Positions 12,739 to 62,926 of a stretch of 64,000 nucleotides of DNA are shown here, piece after piece. Within the stretch, counting starts at the first letter, position 1. Every line of letters begins with the position of its first letter. Made by a program: the position numbers and the translations under genes. The notes beneath the pieces are model-generated. The model searched no databases. It was not told the origin of the DNA and saw only the letters and a list, made by a program, of their open reading frames with translations. Where the stretch lies: positions 36,146,001-36,210,000 of the forward strand of contig OZ004608.1 in assembly GCA_963924565.1 (NCBI GenBank), read 5' to 3'. The stretch is from Ascidiella aspersa. Taxonomy: Eukaryota.

Positions 12739-13512
12739 CTGCTGATAATGTAAGTGGGATCTTTTGGAAAATTCTACATGTGCTACTGGGCCGAAAATGG
12801 ACTATTGCTTAAGTTGATACTTTTATTGCAGAAAGGCCACCGTTATTAATCAAAAACAGCTTAATACTGTGGCTGGTAGCAACAGTTTAAATTGGCCCAA
12901 ATTTATGTTTTCAACCTTAAATACACATATTTGTCGATTGAATTCATTATTGTAAGGGGTACGCCATGTCCATACATAAATCAAAAGGATTACGCCGCTA
13001 AAACAGTAAAAGAAACCCTGTTGCAGGTTTTTTTGTCTCACTTTTAATAATTGTTTTTTTTTGATTGTCAAATTAATTTGGGATATTTCTCTTACGTTAT
13101 CAGGAGATAGTTCGATTAACACTTTCATAGAAGCGAAATCCAATGCACAAATAGTTGCATCGTCAGCTAGAATCGGGAAATGCAGCTTCATAAAGGATTC
13201 ACTTCTTTGCTTCAAAACTTCGAAATCCGATTTTCTGCTTCTGAACCAGATTGACAAAGCATTTCTCGGATTAAGTTTCGGAACCACAAAGCCGCAGCAG
13301 AATTTTTCCAAACCTGCGCGTTTAATGGAAAAAGTCAAATGAAACGACACTTAACGTAGTTTGACTTTGACTACTTGATTTTAAATAGCTTTAAAAAATG
13401 GAAATCACAAATGCTAAAAAATGACGAAGTAAGCTAGGCATTTATAAAATACAATAGCTAAAAGTGCATAAGGTTGGCTTTATGCCAGTCAGCAAAAGTT
13501 TAACTTTTACCC

Positions 13513-41500: not shown

Positions 41501-44500
41501 GCAAAAATACATGCAAGTAAGCATGCAATACTTCAATTATAACTCATACCATTATGTTATTTAACTATCGCCTGACCATGTTGTATAAAAATGTAGAATA
41601 TTTTTTTAAAGTCATTTTAACCTCGTATTTCGTCACAGGAGCCCCATTGTCCTCAGCCGCTTGCCACGTGACTTGCTGGGAGGTGGAAGGAGCAGAGTAG
41701 GGTGGAGTGATTGTGACGTCATTAGGAGCGCTCGGAGGAGCTGGAGAAGCCACGTGGTTAGTTAGAATTGCTTATTGGATCTATCTGGTTTACTCACGAA
41801 AAAAAAAAATAACGTGCAACTTTATGGATGGAAACTGTGTAATGCAATATTTGTTTATTTATGGCTGACAAATGAACTGACAAAGAACTTTAACCGTAAT
41901 GTTCAACGCATACGGTATATATAATTGAGATATGGGCAATTTTGGGTTCAGGTGGTGGACATTTTAAAGCGCCCGAAGCGCTACCCTATACACATAAACT
42001 TTATAATTAATTGACTTACTGAAAATCAAAATCAAGCGAGCTTTTGCCCTTTTGCTCTACGCGAGGTTTCCGTCCTCACTGAAGCCCACCTTAGGACACC
42101 TGCGTTACTCTTTGACAGATGTACCGCCCCAGAATACAAACCGCGAAAGCGTGGCCTATCGATCCTTTTAATTGACTTAAATATAAAAAAAAGTCTTAAA
42201 ATTGTGGTAAAAAGTATTTTGACAATGTAGAAGACAGCAAAGATTGAAAACCAATGTTGAAAAACAACTCCTTAAGCGATCCATACAATGTTCTACACTA
42301 CAACCTCATAACAGCTAGTTTAGTTTATGAGATCGAATTTTATTGTGGAGTTTCTTTTGATCTCTCCATTGGCTGAAAAAACGTGCCAATTTCGGCGCTC
42401 TTTCACTATTGTACGTAAAAATTAATAAAAAAGAAATTTCTTCAAATGCCGCATACCACAACACATTGTTTGGGTTAGGTTGGGGTTAGCATTTGGTTGA
42501 GGGTGGGTCAAGTTATTATTAATAATAAACATAATATTACTTGACCCACCCTCACCCAAACGCTAACCCGCACCCTAACCCAAACAATATGCGTTGTGGT
42601 ATGCGGTATTATTATTATTTTTTTTTGCATAACTTTTCACGTACAATAGTGAAAGAGCGGCCCAATTTCCACTTACCTAGCACACTAACGTTGACAGATG
42701 CGCAGTCTGAGCCGACTTCTGTGCTGGCGCAACAGGCGTAAGTACCTGTCTGTTCACCTTCAACGTCCATAAGCTGTGTGTATTTGAAGGGTGTTAAACG
42801 GAAACTAAAGCTATGTTCGTTACAGTTTTGCGTTGCAGACTTAGAGTATCGAAACGAACCATATAATAGAAAAAATGAATTAAAAAAAAAACTTATTAAG
42901 GAGTCAAACAGTAAAAAGGAGTCAAACAATAAAAAAGTGTATTTAAAAATACAACACAAGGTAATGGATTACTGACTAATTCAATGAGAGCTTTACTAAA
43001 AGTAAAGACTATAGGTCACGTAAGGCAAAATAGTAGATATGATATAAACCTGAAAAATTAGCGAAAAACATTGCCACTAGTTTTCCGGATTTAGAATTAG
43101 ACAAATGCGACTATTAACAAAGATAGATAGTCAAACCTAAATGTGCGAATCTCAAGTTTCCATATATGGTCACCATGAGATCACACAAATTTCTACCTAA
43201 TCGTAATGACGACATAAGTGTTGTGAACAAGTCTGTCCAAGTTAAGTCTTTTCGCTTCTAAGTCAAGTCTCAACTGCAAGTTAAGTCTTTTTGAATAAAT
43301 AACAAGTCAAGTCCAAGCCACCAGTTGCTCAAGTCAAGCAAATAATAAAGCAAGTTAACTCCAAGTGTAAACCAATAAAAAGTCCAGTCTAGTCATTTCT
43401 CCAAAAGAGTCGAGTCAAGTGACTTTTCACAAAAGACTTTCGTCAAGTCATTTGTTAAAAACATTGACTGAAGTGCACTGAAGTCATGCCTTTGACTTAC
43501 GTCATTCCAATAGTACTACACAATATACCAACTTAAACATCACGCACCTTCAAAGAACCTCCCTGGTTTGCGTAATGTTCGTCCCTGATGACCAGTTTTC
43601 CATTTTGTGTCCATTTCCATGTAACCACGAGGTTGACGTCATGCGACTCCGAGCATTCAAGGTCAACCGCGTCACCGAAGGTCAAGTCAATGTTCTCCAA
43701 CGGGTATTTCGTAATAATCGTTGGCTCTGCGCCAAAGTCACATTTAAATCTGCTTTTTCATAAAAGAATTTCATAATGAAAAAAATCAATGCGCCTTATA
43801 GTTGGAACTTCAGTCGAAGAACATCAAACATGTTGCAAAAAGCTTTATTTTAAAATAAAATGCTGACCGATGGTTTATTTCTTGTCTTAAGGCAATCCAA
43901 GTATCATTTTTTTGTAAGTTTTGACAAGAATACCGATTTTTTTCGTTCTGTGTTTTTGATTTTAAACTGGAAGCAAAGAACGTTCAGTAGAAATGTAAAG
44001 ATCAACCTCCTTTTGTGAAACATCTTCCTTTTCCTTGCGTTTAACGTTATTTTCCAAGGTTTGTTAAACACCTTGTTTGTGTGGGTATTCTCCTATAGAG
44101 CCCTTTGTTACCACCAGGTGTTTAAGCACATCGTAAACTATTCTGATTTTGCAAAGTTGCCTCCAAAATAGCAGTTATAATTGTTACCGTAGCGTAGTCT
44201 ACTCACGATAAGCTTGCAGATAGGTTTGTCCATCCACACTCCCGAGTATGTTGGTTGCATTGCACGCGTACTGCCCCTCGTCTGAAATATCCACGTTCTT
44301 CACAGTAAGGCTCCCGTCATTACCGAAAGAGTATCTGGAAAAACATGGCGTTTTGAATAAGGGTGCCTCAGCTTGTATCATCGTTCAGTTTGTGATGATT
44401 TAATATAACAAAAAATTGTGGAAATTGGAAAATATACTTGGGAAATGTTAGGCTGTTCTGACAAGTTACAGTTTAGTAAAAAATTGCAATTCACATAATA

Positions 44501-50500: not shown

Positions 50501-53500
50501 ATCTCAGTTGTTAACACACATATGTGTGTGAATGTTTCATTGATTTAGGCAACTACTGTTTGTGATAGAAGTTTTTATCTAAATAACAACAGAGTCCTCC
50601 AACGCGCACACCACGTCATTTCATCTCTGTACCAAAACCCATCGCCCTTGCGTAACCTTTGTGAGCAAGCGTTGGCGCCAAGTTTCAAACAATCATTAAT
50701 AAGTAATTTCGCGCGCTTTTTGGCGTGTTTCTTGAAAAGGGGCGAGTAGTGTTTGTTTCAGTAGAGATAAGAAAAGGCGGGCTCCGTGTTATAACGTTAC
50801 ATGTTGCGGTTTAACGGCGCAACATAAATGCTGGCTACCACGTGTGTATAGCGAGCGTTTCTAGACGTCCTGGATTTCTGTCAAGGTGTCAAAACGCCAT
50901 TTGACCAAGTTGGACTTGCATTTACTAAAATAAAGATACGCCGCCAGTTGCACAGTTTGGGTTCAATAACCTAATGTGCGAAACCACAGCGTGGAAAATT
51001 GTTACATAAATATATATATGTATATAAAATCATTTTTTTCATTTTTAGCATTGAACGTGCGTACTATAGTTGTACTAATAGATCCCGACTTGTTGTTCAC
51101 AGGGGTGCTAAAAATTTTCGCTAAACATGACCTCACATGCCCGCTGGAAAAGTGAGCTTGTAGACGGGGTAATATATATTTTTTAAGTTGGTGTTTTATT
51201 CTTTCATTGCTTGATAATCTCGCATTTCAGGGAATGCCCCTTAATGGTTCATTCGGTCTGGTTTGAACGAAAAAATCTCGTTTGAACGAAAAAATTATAC
51301 TTTTAACGAACGTTAGTAGTAAGAAACCGAAATACTCGAATGTAATAGGTTATTTGCTAGGCGGCAGGTATTTTTTTGTAAACGCCATGGTAAAGAAAAA
51401 TACGCACTATATCCACGACAGAATAATATCTAAATTTGTCGAAATAGGACCTAAACCTGACGGAAATCCTAAATTGATCAGCATAATGCCCAAATGGTCG
51501 AAATAACGCCTAAACTCTATGAAGGGGGTGGCTCATCAAGATGTGAGATCGACATTTGTTTTGCAAGAGTCAATATGATTTTAAATACGCCGGCGTTCGA
51601 TTTATACACAACTTTTCCTATACAGTACTCTTGCACAACACTTACCCGTACTGACAACTTCAAAAGGCACCGGGCTTCCACTTTTAGTCACAAAGTCTCC
51701 ATCCACTTCCCACGTGGATCTCATATGGCAGATCAGAGAGTCGGTATCTCCCTCCACCGGGTTTGCAAGGTACAGGCTGCCGTCCTTTTGCGAAACAAAC
51801 TTCGTCATGCTGCTTGTCTTTGGCGTGACGAAAGTAAGGGTTTTCTTTGATTCCCAATAGAAGGCCACGCTACGTTCTAAAACACAGCAAAAAAATAAAT
51901 AAAGTTAGACAAAGTTGGTCAATTATGAAACACAACATGAATCAACAAAACTAAATTTCAGCAATATACACGCTTAAATTAGAAACAAAGCATAAATCAT
52001 GACTGAAGTTTGATAATAAACCGCAAAGCCAAAAAGGTCGAGTAGATCGACAGCATCTTGATTAAGACCTTTCGATACGAGCTTGTATCATCTTCAGTTA
52101 ATCTGCTCGTATCGAAACGTCTTAATCAAGATGCTGTCGATTTACTCGATCTTTTTGGCTTTGCAATTTATTATCAAGCTACGTGACTGAAGTTCCTATA
52201 TTACTAAGGTATCGAATCGGCAACCGATACTACCCTAGTATCGGACCAGTACCAATACTACAACTTGGCATTAGGTATCGTTTCCGATCCGGCAGTGTTG
52301 GACTTCCGCAGTTGGAATGGGGTTATAATGTTAAAAATACTCACAAAGAAGTCTATACAATGTTCTAAAACCTTATGACAGCTGGTTTAGTTTATGAGGT
52401 CGCAATTTATAATATTTTCATAAACATCCTGGTGGTAAAGCAAAAAACGTAATCCAGTAAACTAAAGCGCCTAATTATGAAACAAAGTAACAAAAAATGT
52501 AATTTAGGTTGAGAAAGACGCTTAATACTGAACGATTGTGTTTGTAGTGTTCCCCCGAAAATCAGGTCATACATGGATTTTCAAGAACAACCGAATACAA
52601 AAGGGGAAGAAATATTAAAAAAAAACAAGTAAATACTTCTAGAAATTGGTGCAGAAGTTTGTATTTTTTATTAAAAATCAATGAAACATAGCATCACAAG
52701 GCAAAATCAAGCAAAAGGTTTTACATAACAACGCACAACTTGAAAAAAAGGTCTACACACAAGTTGCCTTCTTTAGTACAACTAAGTAAAAAGTAGTTTG
52801 TTGTACTCACTTGGTTCGTATTGTGGAGGCTGGCATTCGATTTTCACTCCTGATCCTTGGCTTGTTGTAACTTTCACGTGGGTGATTGAAGCAAATTCGT
52901 CGATGTCTGAAATTTAAAATAAACAGTGAATAAGCGTTGAATCTAGTTATGCCTGATGAAGGCGTAGATCTAGAAATTTTGTTGGGGGAAAATGACAATT
53001 TATTCAGAGATGACCTTACAGAGTACGTCATAACGTCACATCGCAAACTTACGTCAGAGAGTTATATCTCAATGAAACGTCATACAAAGTAACCTTATTA
53101 ACACCACAAAGTTTGTTTATTTTGTTATACAGGTCTTCAATACAAAAGCTACAACGATGCTATATATTCGCGCATAGCGCAAAACGCCCGTATAAGATCC
53201 TGTTCTGACGGGGTATGTTCACAGTCAGGGATACGGTTCAAATATATAATATACCAAGTTTGGTGCTAATATCGGTTTAAAATTCAAAGCGAGCGACGAA
53301 TATCCTTTGTATAATTAATACCAGAGACAGGACAACACAGTGGTTGACCAAAACGGTTCAAAACAAGTCGCTACTTGAGATTTTACTGTTGCTTTTCTGT
53401 TGGCCGAAAAATCTATACGCTCTCGTCAGTCGATGGGTCACTGCTAGACGCCGTGTACATTTTGCTGAATTGGTCCCTCTTGAATAAATTGAGTTACTTT

Positions 53501-56500
53501 CGATCTGTTAAACGACCAGGAATTTTTTTTCCGAAATGATTTCCTGTTTTCACCAGCGCTTGTTCGATTACCGGCAGTTGTACATTTGTCGCCCTGTCGC
53601 TTAGAGATTCGGGACACTTTTGCCCTTAAGAATGTCGAACTTTTCAAAAAGCGCATTTTAAAGCATGTAGCTTTTTCAAACTGTGTATCAGTATCGCCAT
53701 ATACAACTTTAAAATGCTCAAATCATACACCAGGGTTAACCATCTTCATTTTTGCAAACAAAACACTATGTTTTCTATATGCTATGTCTATGTCATTTTT
53801 TTAGTAACGATATTGGGTATCCACGGACGAGTTCATTAATTTTAACAGGTTAACGTTTTTTATGTCAATGATTTGACTTCAAGTTGACTTGCTCCAATTA
53901 TGGCTTGACTGGTACATGGCTTGTTATTTATTCGAACAGATTGACATGGACTTAAGTTATTTCAAAATGACTTGTGTACAACACTACCGTGTCGACGGTT
54001 ATCGTTGATAAGTACACATTTATAGCGCAAAGATATAATAATAATGTGGATGGATCAGCGTTTTTTGTTTTTCAAGTTTTTCAGCTTGCGGCACATTGAG
54101 AAAACAAAAGCATTCGGCCCACAACGCAATACGATTAACAATTGCACGCCAAGAAAATTACTAAATAACATATAAGTTATCTAATTTATGATGCACAACA
54201 AGTCTTACATGCTTGCCTGCAACTACATTTGTAACACCAAGAGGCTATTTCCTAAAGATTTTTCGTTGCACAGTTCAGTTACTTTTTAGGTGTAGTTTTA
54301 GAACCACTGGTTCTGATCGTAATTTAGTTATTTATTTTTTTTATGCTATATACACGCCATAATCCGAAAAGCTTTTACGAAAATATTATCTTGCTCTTCG
54401 ATATTCAGCATTTAGTTTCTAAAATATTAAGATGTAATTAGTGTTGGGACATAATTTTTCCTAAAATATCGCGCTGCAAACTGTTTTCACTCACGTTAAG
54501 GTCAGGCAATCGATGCTGAAATCGATATTCGGTGACGGTGTCACGTAGAACAGAAAACCGGGATGCGACAGTTTGTATAAAACAAGAAAATTACACATTT
54601 TGTCAAACATGTTTTGCATTTAAAGCTAAGCTGTTTGCAAAATGCATTTGGGATAATTTCAAGTTTAACTTAATAACTGTTTTTAATATTTTATCTGTAC
54701 TTTAGCGAAACCGTTCCGATTGTGTAATTCCATCACTGTGACCCCATGACTCGCTTGGAATGTCGTAATCAGTAAAAGTACTTATATATGTAGAACCCCC
54801 GAGAGTGCAAGGTTTGTTTTACCCCCTATTCTGAAATTTTGTACGTGATGAATATTTTGTTTCGGACTTTGAACGAAATCAGAACTGAAACTGCTTCGCT
54901 CTGCTTTCCGCCGTCGTTTATTTAAAAGTAGTAAAAACACAGTTCTGTTATACGCCTAGTTTTTCAGGGTGAGGTAAATTGTGCGCTAAAAGTATTATGC
55001 ATGGACCACGAAAATTAATTTTACCTTTTCTTAATGAATTTTTAAATTCGTGTTCAAGTACTTTATACAAATGACCCCCTAAAGCTGTTTTCAGCAAAAA
55101 TAAAAGTCTTTTATAATTTTACCCTGTCAGACGGTTATCACGCAGTGCTAATATTATGGGCCATAGTCATTTTATGCAGTTGTTTATAGTCTGCCAGGAA
55201 ACATTGTGCAGTTTAAAGTGATGTGTTATATTTGTTCAAAACAGTTTCCTGGTCTGATCATTTACACGATTTTTAGTAGTTTGTACACTGTTACATTGGA
55301 CTACGTTGTTCAGATGGTCGAATACCGCAACTATGACGTCAACCTTCGTGGGGATGTGACGTAATCGGTAAAAACACTTCGATAAAGAACCTCCCTGAGA
55401 GCCTATAAGGTTTGTTTTACCACCACTATCGAAATGACTTTGTGAAAGTTGTGTTTCCCCACTTTCAAAGCCCGGCGATTGACGTAGGTGGGTGTGGCTA
55501 GGGCGTGGTTTTTGTCTGCCAGTCATCTAAGGTGAGAAAATAGTAACTCCAAGGATACTCGGAACGAGTGAAACCATCACTGTAATGCCAAAGTAAAATA
55601 TCAGATCCTTAGATTCGAATCCAATTTTGCTCCTTAGATTTATTTTTAGAGTAATCAGAATTTTTCTTTCGAATAACAGAATCCGCCTGAATCCGAATGG
55701 TAAAAACAAACAATGATAAGTTAAAACTTAATACATGACTTAGTAAATCGAAAATTAGTTTGTTTGGGGGTTATATAATAAATATATTTTTTGTCGAGGA
55801 TACAATTTGTTTTCTTTTGATCTAGAAACCACTAATTAAAAACGATCGAATCAACCTAATATCCACACTAATGACAGAAATAGTTATACTTTCGACCAAA
55901 ATGCTTCCAGTTATCGGCTTTATTGTATATTGGTATGTTGAAAAATGACAAATAGATTGATTTTTTCTACATGCAATAAACCTCACTCCAATAATTAATT
56001 GACCTCAATCGAGTAAGATTGATATCCGCACTTCACCGCACTGTCAGCTTTTTATAGGAGTCCCTGCCTATTTTACACCAGAAAATCTCGGACAATCTAT
56101 TGTTTGATGTAGGCCCTAGATATATCCTAATATATATATTTTTTTGACATATGTAAAACATGTTTCTTCATACATGCACAAACTGTTTCTTTGTGTCTAC
56201 TTTATAATTTACTTCGTCATGTTAACGGGTATGTTCGCTTTAGCAATAACGAAGTTCTTGCAAGAGATTGGACGAAATAACGTACTAAAGGGATGCGCGA
56301 CAAACTAATATCAAACATGCGGACCTTGAAAACTATTTGTGCGAAACCAGACCTACTTTAGACTTTGAAATAATACTTAATTATCTATTTTGGTAAATAA
56401 TCAAATTTTCAGTAATCTTAGACCTTCAGTATTCTAAGGCCAATAGCAATCTTCAGCATAATTTTAATTGCAGAAATGTGAAACTTGATTACAAACACGT

Positions 56501-59500
56501 CCGCCAAGTTGATTTATGATAGGTTATATATGTATAGCCTTATTGTGTATTGTGTGGAAGCTACGACGAAGCAATACAAAACCATCTCTGAGCATGACTA
56601 TGCTAATCCCGTAGTCAGATTAACAAATTAATGTGTGATTTATCGTTATAGAATGTTTTTCCTACTAATTGCCTTTCCATGCAGCGTGAGATTGTAACGT
56701 ATGTACATACAATCGTTCACCTATACCAGGGGTGGCCAACCGGTCAGCAAGGGACACATTTCCGCTGTCTTAACCGCAAATATCCAAATTTCCGCTGTCT
56801 TGACCGCAAAGATCCACATTTATGATAATAATAATTTACGCATTGTCATTGTATATCGCAATTTGAGTTTATGACCCTTGCTTAGATTGAAATCAGAACT
56901 AAACATTTATAATGAAAAAAAAAGGATTTTAGGTTAAATCCGATTTTTGACGACGTTACCTACTGTATAGCGTCGAGATGCTTGGTATTCCCTTAACCCC
57001 AGGTAGTTAAACTAAAAGTTGATAAATTGCTTTTTAATCTACGAACTGCAGCTACCGGTGCGCTTGGGCGAGCGAGCGCCATTGTATTGCGCAAAACAGC
57101 TTGCTTCCCCATTTTCTACACACAGCGACAAAAGGCACACTTGTTAAGTCAAAGTGCACCACACGCACACCCCTAACCGCTCCTAGGCGATACGAAATGC
57201 TGACTCGAAGAGTAATGCAATTGTGAATAGCTTTTGTGGTTAATCTTCAGTTCTAATTCCTCTCTCGTTCGGAACAAATTAATTCACGCCAATTGTTAGA
57301 CCTACCTACGGGTCTAAGTGTGGAACTACATATGGATTTTACCCAAGATGATAGTGGATTAAAAGATTTAGATTAAATTTAATGTCCGACCTTTAGTTTA
57401 ATCGCTAGTTTTCGCAATTTTGTTAGTTTATTCCCCTAAAAACTAATTAGAGAAAGTCAAGTTTAAGTCAAGTCCTTGTCGTAAAAATAAAACGTTTGAA
57501 TATTAAAACTTATAAACTCGACATATTTTGGGCAATAAATCAAGTATCATATATCAGTAAAGTAAATTGATTTATTTGTAAAAGTTTGGATAAATTACGT
57601 AATTTCATAAAAAAAAGTTACCAAATGAAAATATTTCATTTTAACCCGAGTAATTTTTCTCAAAGACTTAAGTCAAGTCATTTGAAAACAGAGACTTATG
57701 TCATTACAACATGTCAGTTATTACGTTGGGCGGGAAATTAACAAACCCGTTTACTGCTTGTCAGCGTCGCCGTTCAAAAGCAAATATTCTTGCAAGAGAT
57801 TGGACGAAATAACGTATTAAAGGGATGCGCGACAAACTTATATCAAACATGCGGACCTTGAAAACTATTTGTGCGAAACCAGACCTACTTTAGACTTTGA
57901 AATAATACTTAATTATCTATTTTGGTAGATAATCAAATTTTCAGTAATCTTAGACCTTCAGTATTCTAAGGCCAATAGCAATCTTCAGCATAATTTTAAT
58001 GTGAAACTTGATTACAAACACGTCCGTCAAGTTGATTTATGATAGGTTATAGCCTTAATGTGTATTGTGTGGAAGCTACGAAGAAGCAATACAAAACCAT
58101 CTCTGAGCATAACTATGCTAATCCCGTAGTCAGATTAACAAATAAATGTTTGATTTATCGTTACAGAATGTTTTTCCTACTAATTGCCTTTCCATGCAGC
58201 GTGAGATTGTAACGTATGTACATACAATCGTTCACCCATGCCAGGGGTGGCCAACCGGTCAGCAAGGGACACATTTCCGCTGTCTTAACCGCAAATATCC
58301 AAATTTGTGCTTTCTTGACCGCAAATATCCAAATTTGTGCTTTCTTGACCGCAAAGATCCACATTTATGATAATAATAATTTACACATTGTCATTTTATC
58401 AACATCGCAATTTGAGTTTATGACCCTTGCTAAGATCGAAATCAGAACTGAACACCTATAATGAAAAAAAAAAGGTTTTACGTTAAAATCCGATTTTTGA
58501 CAACGTTACCTACTGTATAGCTTCGAGGAGCTTGGTATTCCCTTAACCCCAGGTAGTTAAACTAAAAGTTGATAAATTGCTTTTTAATCTACGAACTGCA
58601 GCTACCGGTGCGCTTGGGCGAGCGAGCGCCATTGTATTGCGCAAAACAGCTTGCTTCCCCATTTTCTACACACAGCGACAAAAGGCACACTTGTTAAGTC
58701 AAAGTGCACCACACGTACACCCCTAACCGCTCCTAGGCGATACGAAATGCTGATTCGAAGAGTAATGCAATTTGTGAATAGCTTTTGTGGTTAATCTTCA
58801 GTTCTAATTCCTCTCTCGTTCGGAACAAATTAATTCACGCCAATTGTTAGACCTACCTACGGGTCTAAGTGTGGAACTACATAAGGATTTTACCCAAGAT
58901 GATAGTGGATTAAAAGATTTAGATTAAATTTAATGTCCGACCTTTAGTTTAATCGCTAGTTTTCGCAATTTTGTTAGTTTATTCCCCTAAAAACTAATTA
59001 GAGAAAGTCAAGTTTAAGTCAAGTCCTTGTCGTAAAAATAAAACGTTTGAATATTAAAACTTATAAACTCGACATATTTTGGGCAATAAATCAAGTATCA
59101 TATATCAGTAAAGTAAATTGATTTATTTGTAAAAGTTTGGATAAATTACGTAATTTCATAAAAAAAAGTTACCAAATGAAAATATTTCATTTTAACCAGA
59201 GTAATTTTTCTCAAAGACTTAAGTCAAGTCATTTGAAAACAGAGACTTATGTCATTACAACATGTCAGTTATTACGTTGGGCGGGAAATTAACAAACCCG
59301 TTTACTGCTTGTCAGCGTCGCCGCTCAAAAGCAAATATTTGCACCAAACCTCATTTTCCCAGTGGCCGTTAAGTGTGCCACACAATGCTGCTTGTCGCAA
59401 GACCATGGTCGTACATTTGCCCAAGACACACGGTTAAGGCAAATGTCTGACGCTGTGGTTAAATATGCAGTTAACGTTCAACTGCGCCTCTCTTTTTAAG

Positions 59501-61856
59501 ACTGAGTAAAACATTTACAGATTATTCGAGGCAGTGGAATACAAACCAATCAAGTAAAAAGTAAATTTGACTGAACAAAATAACATTAAATGCTGTTTTA
59601 TCAAAAGGTGCAAACTTCTGGGCTGGTATAGACATTTTTTTTCACTTATATCCAGATTATTATATTTTGTATTCAGGGGTGTATCCATATTTTTCGTCTG
59701 GGGTGCATAAAATGTTCAGGAATGATGTAACAAAGTTACGTCATAACGTGATGTACTAATACAATTATTCCCAAAAACAACTGTCCTGGGCGAACTCTTG
59801 CGCAAAATGTAGGTGAAAAGAAAGGTGTAGTGTATTGTAGATGCAATCATTAATATACATGTTGACTCTAACAAACACTCGCTCGGTACGCAAATTTGAA
59901 ATCACAGCCTTTTAGTGAATATACTATTGCTGCCAGGCATTGTTTCAATTCCAAAATTGTTCTTTCCATCAAAATTCATGTTTTGGTAAACCGATAAAGC
60001 ACTTAAGGACATTTCTAAAAAAATAAACAAAATATGCGTAACTCGCATGATTTTTCTTTTTTAGCCAAGCTAAACAAAACGGGTGTGATGCCTTATACTG
60101 TGTAATTTATACCCATATCGAGACCTTTGCTCTATTGAGCTACACAGGCTCATAGGGAGCAAGTCGAGAACCAACCTAAAATCTGTTGCCTGCATTCTGT
60201 TCGTAAAACTAACCTGTGGTGAGATTCGAACTCACAACCTCGGTCATATTTGGACCGTCGCTCAACCAACTAAGCTACACAGGCTCAGAGGGGAGCAAGT
60301 CGAGAAATAACCATAGCACCGTTGCCTGCTGCATCGTGTTTGTAAAACTAGCCTAAGGTGAGGTTCGAACTCACGACCTCCGATCATACCGGGACCGTCG
60401 CTCTACCAACTGAGCTAAACAGGCTCATATTGCAACAAGTCAAGAAACAACCATAGCACCGTTGCCTGCTACATCCTGTTCATACAGTAGCTCAGTTGGT
60501 AGAGCGGTATGACCGAAGGTCGTGAGTTCAAACCTCACCACAGGCTTGTGTTTCTAGCCTAACTTTCTTGTAGTATAACCCTGATGAGACTAACTGATCT
60601 AGGTAAGCCTCTTAGAAGGCATCCTGTTCACTTCTGTAACTACAGCAGTTTCGTTAAATATGGTTATTTTTACACACAAAAAAAGTTGCGATCTCTTACA
60701 GTTTTCAGTGGACGACAAAACCAAAACCTTAACAAACACGAAAAAAGCGTGTTAAAGTGTACTTACATGCGAAGATAAGTTTCCCGTAGTTGCTGACTAC
60801 TACGCCTTCATCACTTTTTACCACGCACTGGTAATCTCCTCCATCACTTGCTTGGGGCTGCGAGATCTGCAGAGTGCCACCGATCACTTTAAACCGGCTG
60901 TTTTCTGTGTTAAAAACATAGCGAGTGGCGCTTAGTTCTAAACATGGTGTGAAATACAGTTGAAACCCCCCAAAAAATTTGTGCTAAAATTACAAATAAA
61001 ATTGAATTTTTAGAACACAATTTTTTTTAGTAATTTGAATAAAAATACGAAAGCCAATATATTCTATAAAAACGAAATTGATGGATTAAAGAATTTTTGT
61101 TTATGTTTTATCCCCACAGTTTAGCTTTCTGCCAACAGAGGGTATTATTTTTATTTAAATATAAAAGTTTAGTAACTATTTTTCGCAATTGAACCCCGTT
61201 AGCTTATTTTACCAACCTCAAAAAGCTTAAAAAATTCCCTAAATATTTGCGTATGAAATTATAAAGCTACAAATAATAATTTCTTCTTCTGGCAAATAGT
61301 TCAGTAACCAGATGAGAAATGTGTTCTAATAAGATCACGCTCGAGAAAAATAATGTTTTCTAATAAGATCACGCCTGAGAGTTGCTTACACCCTCATTCA
61401 GAACTTAAGGCCCCTCTTAATTTAGATGGTCACTTGCAACAGTTATTTTGATTTGCGTTATTAAATACAGTTTGTTTCTGTCAATTAAACTTCGAAAAGT
61501 CCACAATTTACACCAAATAATATAAATCAAAAACAGATCCTCTGGTAATTTTAATTCTTTGCCAACGTTTCGGCAACCTGTTCAAGCCGCCTTCGGCTTT
61601 TCTTTCCATTTATTGTACGAGCGTTCAGTGTCATTACCCTGACGAAGGCGGCTTGAATAGGCAAAGAATTAAAATTACCAGAAGAGCTGTTTTTGATTTA
61701 TATTACGCCAAATAACTTTACCTGGTAGAGGCTGGTCATTCTTTCTCCACGAGTAGATCGGTGTATTTTCAAGCTTCGCTTTGCACTGGAAGGTTATCTG
61801 CGCCTTGGAGTCGAGAGGTACGACTTGGTCGCTTGGCTCGACCTCGAAAATTCCAG
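32501..61856 (-). CDS. CNTN: Contactin (GPI-anchored Ig-superfamily adhesion molecule, 6 Ig + 4 FnIII); signal-peptide exon not found in window
   Basis: 21 phase-compatible GT-AG exons: 61722-61856, 60767-60904, 52811-52906, 51646-51876, 49129-49225, 48267-48445, 45619-45903, 44766-44913, 44207-44334, 43548-43726, 42677-42773, 41622-41740, 40188-40368, 39363-39433, 38354-38530, 37373-37481, 36161-36270, 35722-35869, 34339-34502, 33694-33868, 32501-32601 (about 1020 aa). Ig DxGxYxC motifs are present, with the contactin-typical FN2 motif VSGGGGKPGQLVVTW. The C-terminus GTSSKYGGKATHLSLNVSLLFLICFTILKAWLN* is a GPI-type hydrophobic tail with no cytoplasmic domain. Confidence 0.93.
32784..33298. 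mobile_element. hAT (Charlie/Buster-like) MITE
   Basis: TIRs CAGTGGTTGTCAAACT / AGTTTGAGAACGACTG; perfect 8-bp TSD GGCTAAGC. Confidence 0.88.
36651..36859. mobile_element. Fold-back MITE with degenerate GGGTTA-like arms
   Basis: Long inverted repeat TGGCGGTGGTCTAGAATCC...GGATTCTAGACCAGCGCCA. Related copies lie at about 16629-16832 and 42394-42661. Confidence 0.7.
37599..37917. mobile_element. hAT (Charlie/Buster-like) MITE
   Basis: TIRs CAGGGTTTCTTAAACT / AGTTTAAGAACCCCTG, subterminal GGACCCC motifs, TSD ctttaaat/ctttacat. Confidence 0.82.
40410..41180. repeat. Composite inverted-repeat element containing two tRNA-derived units (40728-40792, 41052-41116)
   Basis: The arm GATCTAGC..CTGCTTATTGACCAACGATTACGGCTTACG occurs twice directly (about 40440, about 40620) and once inverted (about 40860-40930); another copy is at about 50445-50540. 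The internal units have A box TAGCTCAGTTGG and B box GTTCGAACC. Confidence 0.7.
42017..42169. pseudogene. 28S rRNA-derived insertion (two adjacent 28S segments, the 5' one inverted) in a contactin intron
   Basis: 42017-42132 is the reverse complement of conserved 28S CTGGGGCGGTACATCTGTCAAA..GCAGGTGTCCTAAG..AAAAGCTCGCTTGATTTTGATTTTCAGTA. 42132-42169 is the next 28S stretch in sense (GAATACAAACCGCGAAAGCGTGGCCTATCGATCCTTT). The insert is flanked by the direct repeat TTAATTGACTTA. Confidence 0.9.
42394..42661. mobile_element. Fold-back MITE with GGGTTA-like arms
   Basis: Ends GGCGCTCTTTCACTATTGTACGT / ACGTACAATAGTGAAAGAGCGGC; direct repeat CCAATTTC on both flanks. Confidence 0.8.
43217..43505 (+). 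repeat. AAGTC-pentamer-rich dispersed repeat (MITE-like), same family as 47850-48238 and about 53870-53985
   Basis: Begins AGTGTTGTGAACAAGTC and carries many AAGTC/CAAGT units. Confidence 0.6.
47242..47455. mobile_element. Old inverted repeat carrying two degenerate hammerhead ribozyme cores (Penelope-like pLTR relic)
   Basis: Plus arm TTGATGA-T-GCC-ttgttttgt-GGC-GGAA-TACATT; minus arm CTGATGC-T-GCC-ttattttgt-GAC-GAAA-TATATT. The arms pair over about 90 bp. Confidence 0.55.
47850..48238 (-). repeat. GACTT-pentamer tandem-rich repeat (MITE-like) ending ACAACACTG
   Basis: Dense GACTT/GGACTT units with roughly 30- and 65-bp higher-order repeats. Confidence 0.7.
49709..50027. mobile_element. 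hAT (Charlie/Buster-like) MITE
   Basis: TIRs CAGTAGTTCCCAAACT / AGTTTGGGAAGCACTG; perfect 8-bp TSD ATCTAGAC. Confidence 0.88.
52008..52180. mobile_element. Near-perfect inverted repeat (Penelope-like pLTR relic) containing a hammerhead ribozyme
   Basis: Arms about 52008-52082 and 52105-52180; flanking direct repeat TGACTGAAGTT at 52000-52010 and 52184-52194. Confidence 0.75.
52060..52103 (-). ncRNA. Minimal type-I hammerhead ribozyme motif
   Basis: Minus strand reads GATTAA-CTGAAGA-T-GATAC-aagctc-GTATC-GAAA-GG-TC-TTAATC. This gives a 6-bp stem I, the CUGANGA core, a 5-bp stem II, GAAA and a UC cleavage site. Confidence 0.8.
56255..59337 (+). repeat. Tandem duplication of about 1.53 kb (copies 56255-57786 and 57787-59337)
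   Basis: Both copies start TTCTTGCAAGAGATTGGACG and end CAAAAGCAAATA. They are near identical, with a few SNPs and small indels. Confidence 0.95.
60125..60560. repeat. Cluster of tRNA-derived repeats: about 140-bp tandem units on minus (one partial, two full) plus one inverted unit
   Basis: Cloverleaf-like units at 60212-60284 and 60351-60424 (minus) and 60488-60546 (plus), with pol III A/B boxes but non-canonical, variable anticodon loops. Confidence 0.75.
61518..61705. mobile_element. Inverted repeat (Penelope-like pLTR relic) with a hammerhead ribozyme split across the two arms
   Basis: Plus arm CC-CTGACGA-A-GGCGGCTTGAATAGGC (61637-61662); minus arm CGAAGGCGGCTTGAACAGGTTGCC-GAAA-CG-TT-GG (61595-61562). 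Flanks are acaccaaataa/acgccaaataa. Confidence 0.7.
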
Positions 61857-62926
61857 CTGCGGTGAAACACTGTGTTGTTAAATAAAGACCAAAGCAGACA
61901 AGACCGATATTTGGTAAATGCTGTAGTAGTTAAAATTATACACACCACTTGCCTGATGAGCGTTAGAAGTTCAGTTATCTCCAAGTTGTTATTAACCTGC
62001 TGTTTTTTACTTTATTTAACTTACAAGACCGATGGTTGACGAATTTGATACTAGTTAAATAATGCATACCGCTGGGTAAATAGTGATACTTCACTCTGAT
62101 AAGTAGAAATTTCGATATTTATTCTGATATCCGACATTTTAGCAAAAAAGTATCGCGGTCGGATCGGATACCTAATGACGTCATTACTATACTTAAACAA
62201 GCAAAATCGATAAATAACATTCAGCGGCAATTTTTTCAGGTTAGGGCTAACTTTGCCTGAGCGTTAAAAGTTCGGTTACATGTAGTTGTTAAATTTACCC
62301 TTTTATCAGTTTACCTTTTAAGTATAAATAACTATTTCGGGCGCAACCTATGGAAAAAACTACTGTGTTAATTTGCTATCAGATCGGCCCTGATACCATC
62401 GTAATATCGGGCGAGTAACGATACTACCACTTGGTATCGAGTATCGGTACCGATTCAATATTATCGGACATCGAGTATCGGCACCGATCCGACATTATTG
62501 GACATGCCTACTGGTATGTAGTATTAGTAAACGAAAACTTTTGATTCACGGCTGTGCAATTTACACGTTTTTGAGGTTCATTTATAGACCACGTTTTTTG
62601 TTACACAAATTTAGCTCCGGCACACGGCAATGCCCGACTTCTGTTTTAGGTTTGTTTGTATACCGTTGTAAATTCGGCTTATAGCGAGATGACTAAACTC
62701 CGCATTATACATATATTATACGTGTTTTTCTGGAATCTTTATGTTGTTTTTTTATATTGATTGATAAACCAGTTTCTGTTTGGCTAAAACTTTCCTTGTT
62801 TAAAGCCCAAACAGACAGGTATTGGGATTTATATAAAGTTTTCAATTTTTCTGTATTCGTCTCGTAACTATATAAAGTTGATAAAACATATTTTTTGATT
62901 GCAAGTGCAAAATATACTAACTAAAG

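Follow-up and report, generated by a model that had tools for sequence, protein, structure and literature searches.

A decayed head-to-head insertion of Penelope-like element ends, with both hammerhead copies damaged, beside a predicted splice donor of Ascidiella aspersa

The window analysed here is a stretch of 64,000 nucleotides from the ascidian Ascidiella aspersa (contig OZ004608.1, positions 36,146,001 to 36,210,000 of the forward strand; all coordinates below are counted from its first letter), and at 61518-61706, next to an apparent splice donor of a gene on the minus strand, it contains an inverted repeat with parts of a hammerhead ribozyme in both of its arms. The question raised by this locus is whether one hammerhead is divided between the arms, as proposed in an initial annotation made from the sequence alone, and whether it was broken by selection against cleavage of the host pre-mRNA or by accident. 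The motif is not divided between the arms, which are two damaged copies of one and the same sequence. The locus is a decayed stub of a Penelope-like element (PLE), inert and ordinary mobile DNA, and the copy in the window is neither a ribozyme nor a retrozyme. Very probably, two 3' ends of a Penelope/Poseidon-type element, each truncated on its 5' side, are inserted here head-to-head as non-coding DNA, with no whole minimal hammerhead in either arm, a state likely reached via two unrelated and neutral accidents.

The insertion is 189 bp long, free of open reading frames (ORFs), and composed of a head-to-head pair of pseudo-long terminal repeats (pLTRs). Two pairs of inverted repeats were found in it, one with 46-nt arms at 61518-61563 and 61660-61705 (96% complementary) and one with 19-nt arms at 61577-61595 and 61643-61661 (95% complementary). 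Its parts are as follows:

61508..61520, no strand: left copy of the target-site duplication, 13 nt, the final 3 nt overlapping the start of the first arm
61518..61595, minus strand: pLTR arm that is inverted, without tail and sense to the host pre-mRNA, spanning family positions +82 to +4
61596..61706, plus strand: second pLTR arm, antisense to the host gene, beginning about 45 nt upstream of CTGACGA (61639-61645), without tail
61703..61715, no strand: right copy of the target-site duplication, with its initial 4 nt, TTAC, overlapping the end of the second arm

The flanking direct repeat (61508-61520 and 61703-61715) comprises 13 nt with one mismatch; among mismatched flank pairs used as a control (n=5112), a length of at least 13 nt was reached in 0.14%. 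Duplications of at least 11 nt, mostly of 11-17 nt including overlaps, were found at 58 of the 72 head-to-head copies of the same family in the genome. The two arms differ by three substitutions across about 63 shared nucleotides, and the window copy is therefore not new. It corresponds to a minor variant of the family, having 15 genome matches within one mismatch, and its GGCAA flank is seen beside an intact core at another locus (L173).

The plus arm reads CC-CTGACGA-A-GGCGGC at 61637-61652 and lacks 15 nt which are kept by the minus arm. This deletion, located between GG repeats at 61660-61661, takes out the 3' side of stem II together with GAAACGTT, and the segment concerned is predicted to fold as a 7-bp hairpin of its own. 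The minus arm reads GGCGGC-TTGAACAG-GTTGCC-GAAA-CGTT-GG, starting at the central junction (61595), past CTGA; it retains stem II, GAAA, the CG palindrome and UU, as well as the site between 61564 and 61563 at which cleavage is predicted, and, being cut at the junction, is without C3-A6 and the 5' side of stem I. The initial annotation had described both arms in these terms, the plus arm with CTGACGA and without the other part of the motif, the minus arm cut before CTGA, and had rightly concluded that neither strand retains a full core: CTGANGA joined to GAAACG occurs on neither strand of the 64-kb window, the window copy has no complete minimal type-I hammerhead core on one strand, and an Rfam scan of the whole window returned zero matches to hammerhead families. 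What it took for an A-rich tail belongs to the interior of the pLTR; the true tail of the PLE, of about 27-30 nt, is absent from both arms. Truncation during insertion, one of the causes it suggested, is the likely cause for the minus arm and does not hold for the plus arm, which has an internal deletion instead.

Elsewhere in the 309-Mb genome the two parts of the motif do stand joined on one strand, and the initial annotation thus withstands its own refuting condition, the lack of any such copy: the exact pattern from CTGACGA to GAAACGT has 147 matches, against 0 for the reversed pattern. A search with a 216-bp query gave 976 candidates, 40 of which were scored, and a 30-mer from the 3' end of the family has 131 matches. 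The intact copies consist of a stem I of 3 bp, CUGACGA, one additional A, a stem II of 8 bp, GAAA, a palindromic CG and UU. Of the cells in 15 hand-picked variants, 94% were paired, and the core was invariant save for position 7 (C/U), H17 (U/C) and one change at G16.2; covariation among them was not above shuffles (58/500) and lends the structure weak support, and at one pair a compensatory change from G-C to A-U was seen in two members of a sister family. For an intact monomer, the fold predicted to have the lowest energy is an off-register alternative. The intact copies display the layout of a minimal type-I hammerhead, which may cleave itself as a dimer or with the help of protein.

This layout agrees with that of the minimal hammerhead ribozymes (min-HHRs) described in the pLTRs of metazoan PLEs by Cervera and De la Pena (2014, PMC4209133), with which the family shares the CUGANGA core, one extra nucleotide separating position 9 from 10.1, G10.1-C11.1, a long stem II (8 bp), a short stem I and a palindromic 15.2-16.2 without loop III. 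The published motifs are mostly solitary, pairs on opposite strands 100-700 bp apart being also reported; unlike them, both motifs of the window copy are broken. A single min-HHR gave no self-cleavage in vitro, dimers cleave at a low level, and natural min-HHRs are thought to work as dimers (PMC4209133). For PAc, a Poseidon element of Anolis (Frangieh et al. 2024, PMC11167929), the hammerhead cleaved only with protein; insertion in vitro did not depend on it, and RNA-seq showed no cleavage ends from it.

A sister PLE family, about 75-80% identical and having the same hammerhead core with a compensated stem II, is found at L219 (924-969) and L220 (1079-1124, minus strand), the copy at L219 having a GUC cleavage triplet. 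The window itself holds another hammerhead-like inverted repeat at about 52004-52190, patterned in the same way, with CTGAAGA-stem-GAAA and an altered palindrome in its minus arm, and with GAAACGTC in its plus arm, which is cut before CTGA. The hairpin at 52044-52143 gave no BLAST match to the family of 61518-61706, in agreement with the initial annotation, which had considered the two families unrelated.

Longer copies of the family extend upstream into a frame with GIY-YIG and reverse transcriptase (RT) motifs, and the earlier identification of the insertion as a PLE pLTR was borne out by this parent frame. The translation at L043 (703-1833, 377 aa) shows RT motifs followed by GIY-YIG with a CxxC..H..H pattern; inspected by eye, the stretch from the RT region to the GIY-YIG motif has no additional Cys/His cluster. 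Pfam GIY-YIG matched L034 at E 7.7e-4, under the curated cut-off, the Atlas gave 0.97 to RVT_1/GIY-YIG/HTH_animal clusters for a parent fragment, and a PDB sequence search with an RT/endonuclease (EN) fragment gave 0 matches. At L214 the pLTR (865-979) continues directly into a 293-aa frame beginning MPGSNSLY, and at L216 the order is ORF end, pLTR, ORF start, i.e. a partial tandem with the pLTR upstream of the ORF; in both, the family tail of about 27-30 nt encodes the first ORF codons, MPGSNSLY. No intact full-length ORF was found, 17 candidates having been scored for the N-terminal region. The parent plan is that of a canonical EN+ PLE, and since a Zn-finger linker is missing, its sequence points to the Penelope/Poseidon clade; PMC8557442 describes a Zn-finger-like linker between RT and EN in Neptune and Nematis. 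Apparent tandem copies of 3.8 kb on C3 were rejected as full-length elements, as they are duplications of host DNA holding one short copy. A tandem array with a 37-bp unit derived from the family 3' end was found at L212 (G000:C6:12084529 onward).

How common such damage is was assessed at 176 unique loci, some of which were picked through an intact core, biasing the set towards intact copies. Seventy-two of them have the head-to-head layout, with both cores present in 15, one core in 35 and none in 22, and in 62 of the 144 arms the cut lies 3' of C3. When only the head-to-head copies picked solely by the 3'-end 30-mer are counted, 14 of 28 are without an intact core. Of 245 arms, 14 have an internal deletion of at least 5 nt, and hairpin copies are not enriched in such deletions (7 of 144 versus 7 of 101 arms, p 0.58). 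Core-breaking lesions like those of the window copy are common in its sister copies. Truncation at the ribozyme cleavage site was also looked for: inner ends cluster at +36 to +47, but they are scattered and often carry untemplated bases, and because the sampling pattern favours short arms, the cluster was not counted as evidence of cleavage.

The tail follows a strict rule in the family. Exactly one arm is tailed in 68 of the 72 head-to-head copies (p 5e-16 against 50:50), two arms in 1 and none in 3, the window copy being among these three; the tails of sister copies terminate with GTTTA(TA), which overlaps the duplication. In 27 of 53 head-to-head copies, a tally in which one row of doubtful pairing (L105) was kept, the tailed arm is shorter than the tailless one, and a fold-back copy of the tailless strand gains no tail, which favours two templates. 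Two start sites bounding the tail were shown in vitro for PAc (PMC11167929). We tentatively suggest, as a possibility somewhat short of even, that every head-to-head insertion of the family results from asymmetric twin priming, in which two nicked strands would prime two cDNAs, at the tailed and at the tailless site, that are later joined; PMC3846280 favours self-priming on an antisense template instead. If twin priming is true, the two in vitro start sites of PAc would be tied to a structural rule in genomes, simple self-priming would be argued against, and the window copy would be a product of twin priming which lost its tail afterwards. The rule of one tail per insertion provides a cheap genomic test of how inverted ends are built in Penelope elements, a step undefined in the cited papers. 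Two further stubs of the family lie in the window: a second, more decayed head-to-head stub at 35623-35715, with a tail and no ribozyme part, and a tiny third one at 12844-12892, in which a tailless arm of about 18 nt is followed by a tail remnant.

For the window copy, the following course of events is proposed. The element protein would have made nicks, about 10-13 nt from each other, in the two strands of an AT-rich target, and two short cDNAs, one from the tailless and one from the tailed start site, would have been joined head-to-head. The minus-arm cDNA would have halted just within the ribozyme core, and the plus arm would have lost its 15 nt by a skip of the polymerase between the two GG repeats around the 7-bp hairpin, during copying or later. 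The plus-arm tail was then likely lost by a deletion between two TTAC repeats, one at the arm end and one in the duplication; the junction as it is now would result from this deletion and one substitution. Pairing of the arms as a long hairpin is predicted for the host pre-mRNA and would preclude a ribozyme fold; for the host-strand RNA of the insertion a single long hairpin was predicted (-98.4 kcal/mol, z -12). The tailless junction is crossed by contigs of runs X1, X3 and X4, from two studies, and the central junction has an exact match in a contig of X1, a run which may be the window's own source.

The layout of the insertion is already in print, and the finding is in this sense an ordinary one. 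According to PMC3846280 (Pen2a of Adineta) and PMC8557442, insertions of EN+ PLEs have an inverted 5'-truncated pLTR beside a direct copy, a target-site duplication (of 9-10 bp), microhomology deletions, and at one end a tail of about 30 bp which encodes the first ORF residues, as in the present family; unlike the insertions described there, the window copy is 189 bp long, ORF-free and tailless on both arms. A tail of 30-40 bp at one end is an optional feature of EN+ PLEs. PAc (PMC11167929) resembles the family in its RT and C-terminal GIY-YIG, in a hammerhead located in the pLTR just upstream of the tail, in a tail bounded by two ends, and in its AT-rich targets; the PAc ORF starts at stem II, whereas the ATG of the family is found at the tail start, some 80 nt downstream of the core (L214). 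Non-LTR retrozymes, as described in the preprint 10.64898/2026.07.22.740005, are likewise non-autonomous, hammerhead-bearing derivatives of PLE pLTRs, but their units are arranged head-to-tail in tandem, each having a complete hammerhead, whereas the window copy is head-to-head and has neither head-to-tail units nor a complete hammerhead.

Joining GT at 61721-61720 to AG at 60939-60938 yields a single open Ig-domain frame on the minus strand, and the minus-strand ORFs on both sides match Pfam Ig_3 as well as Robo/contactin chains:

61722..61870, minus strand: host exon of a contactin/L1/Robo-like adhesion protein, covering the first half of an Ig domain (Ig_3 E 6e-5; Robo1 E 1.6e-10; contactin-1 E 2.5e-7)
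61716..61721, minus strand: host splice donor GTAAAG of the intron 61721-60938 (784 nt, phase 1)
60783..60937, minus strand: next host exon with the second half of the Ig domain, from a minus-strand ORF matching Pfam Ig_3 and from the spliced frame

The insertion thus appears to lie within an intron of an Ig-domain gene, as judged from this sequence-derived gene model. As the gene is on the minus strand, the minus arm is sense and the plus arm antisense to the pre-mRNA. The arm ends 15 nt from the GT donor and the insertion begins at intron position 16; the earlier reading of the flanks as a duplication and of a donor at 61721 about 15 nt away agrees with the 13-nt repeat and the open spliced frame. 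Insertion beside splice sites is not unique to this locus. Other family copies within about 15 nt of likely splice sites include L108 (1949-2430), at the donor of an SLC1A gene; a copy at L067 (3038-3245) sits at a likely acceptor, the AG of which is part of the duplication, and one at L196 (2487-2600) lies beside an ADAMTS ORF.

Selection against self-cleavage of the host pre-mRNA would require that the insertion persisted only since its host-strand arm had no working core. We consider this improbable, and it was examined with 31 insertions, the window copy included, to which a host strand could be assigned after 446 of 468 candidate flanking ORFs and 19 earlier ones had been searched in Pfam; intron status was judged from domain coverage, and transposon-protein matches, doubtful matches and elements seemingly outside the gene were left out. 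Strict cores are present on both strands in 4 of these copies, on the sense strand only in 6, on the antisense strand only in 11, and on neither in 10. The CUGA is indeed missing from the host-strand arm of the window copy, and the comparison of sense with antisense cores came out in the direction that selection predicts, with 11 antisense-only to 6 sense-only copies, a skew which is not significant in so small a sample (p 0.33; 9 to 4, p 0.27, in the confident subset). Intronic transposons in general show an antisense excess. Retrozymes are reported to be mildly depleted from Xenopus introns (preprint 10.64898/2026.07.22.740005), and the PAc hammerhead does cleave in the presence of its protein (PMC11167929). 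However, the deletion of the plus arm lies on the untranscribed strand, could not have protected the pre-mRNA and is left unexplained by such selection. The host strand carries the core in 10 of the 21 gene-associated copies having one, and fully intact host-strand cores occur in likely introns of SCO1, SSRP1, a carboxypeptidase gene and an aminoacyl-tRNA synthetase gene. In the SLC1A copy, about 10 nt from its donor, both catalytic cores are preserved, the sense arm having one mismatch in stem I. Moreover, truncation cuts the core in 62 of 144 arms whatever the site, 22 of the 72 copies being coreless, while a lone min-HHR is inactive in vitro (PMC4209133) and mutual pairing of the arms would be expected. 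Likely introns appear to tolerate intact minimal hammerheads on their sense strand, which fits the low activity of monomers. Our literature searches gave, among the matches listed, no study on whether intronic PLE hammerheads show a strand bias, and no paper combining the terms Penelope-like, ascidian and hammerhead.

An equally unlikely explanation concerns splicing rather than cleavage. A tail on the host strand would repeat the last 8 nt of the exon and, some 35-40 nt below the true donor, introduce a cryptic TG|GTAAT, for which reason its loss would have been favoured. Both arms are tailless in only 3 of 72 head-to-head copies, the window copy is 15 nt from a donor, and its tailless junction is common to X1, X3 and X4, all of which would fit. 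Yet 16 of the 31 gene-associated copies carry an antisense tail on the host strand, the cryptic site being unchanged in 13 of these 16; the 4-nt TTAC microhomology accounts for the loss mechanically, and the argument is a post hoc one built on a single case.

A functional split ribozyme formed by complementation of the two broken arms, be it in cis or via sense and antisense transcripts, is hardly credible: all core nucleotides are present between the two arms and natural min-HHRs are believed to be active as dimers (PMC4209133), but the halves are on opposite strands and never in one RNA, the 3' side of stem II is also gone from the plus arm, sense and antisense transcripts would instead anneal fully, and the lesions resemble those of many sister copies. 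'Split ribozyme' patterns in inverted repeats should be read first as two damaged copies of one PLE end.

Several points weigh against two neutral accidents in a Penelope/Poseidon-type insertion. Pfam RVT_1 gave no match on the RT fragments of the parent family. No empty allele was found among the joints listed from the contigs of the runs, which cannot show absence, and the order of events is accordingly inferred. With only 3 of 72 copies tailless on both arms and the donor 15 nt away, loss of the tail could have been favoured. The gene models consist of Pfam matches and our own intron calls rather than annotation or RNA, and with 11 antisense-only against 6 sense-only copies, weak selection is possible.

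Other features were observed in the window. In the neighbouring intron, three tRNA-like copies (two on the minus and one on the plus strand) at 60211-60539 probably form a cluster of tRNA-derived short interspersed elements, and a direct duplication with a spacing of 1532 bp is found at about 56300-58800, inside an intron of the host gene. A near-perfect 89-nt hairpin at 42482-42570, with weak matches to several miRNA models that are all under gathering scores, is possibly a miniature inverted-repeat transposable element. A fragment of large-subunit rRNA (Rfam E 4.5e-10) is located at 41958-42120 and is presumably eukaryotic 28S.

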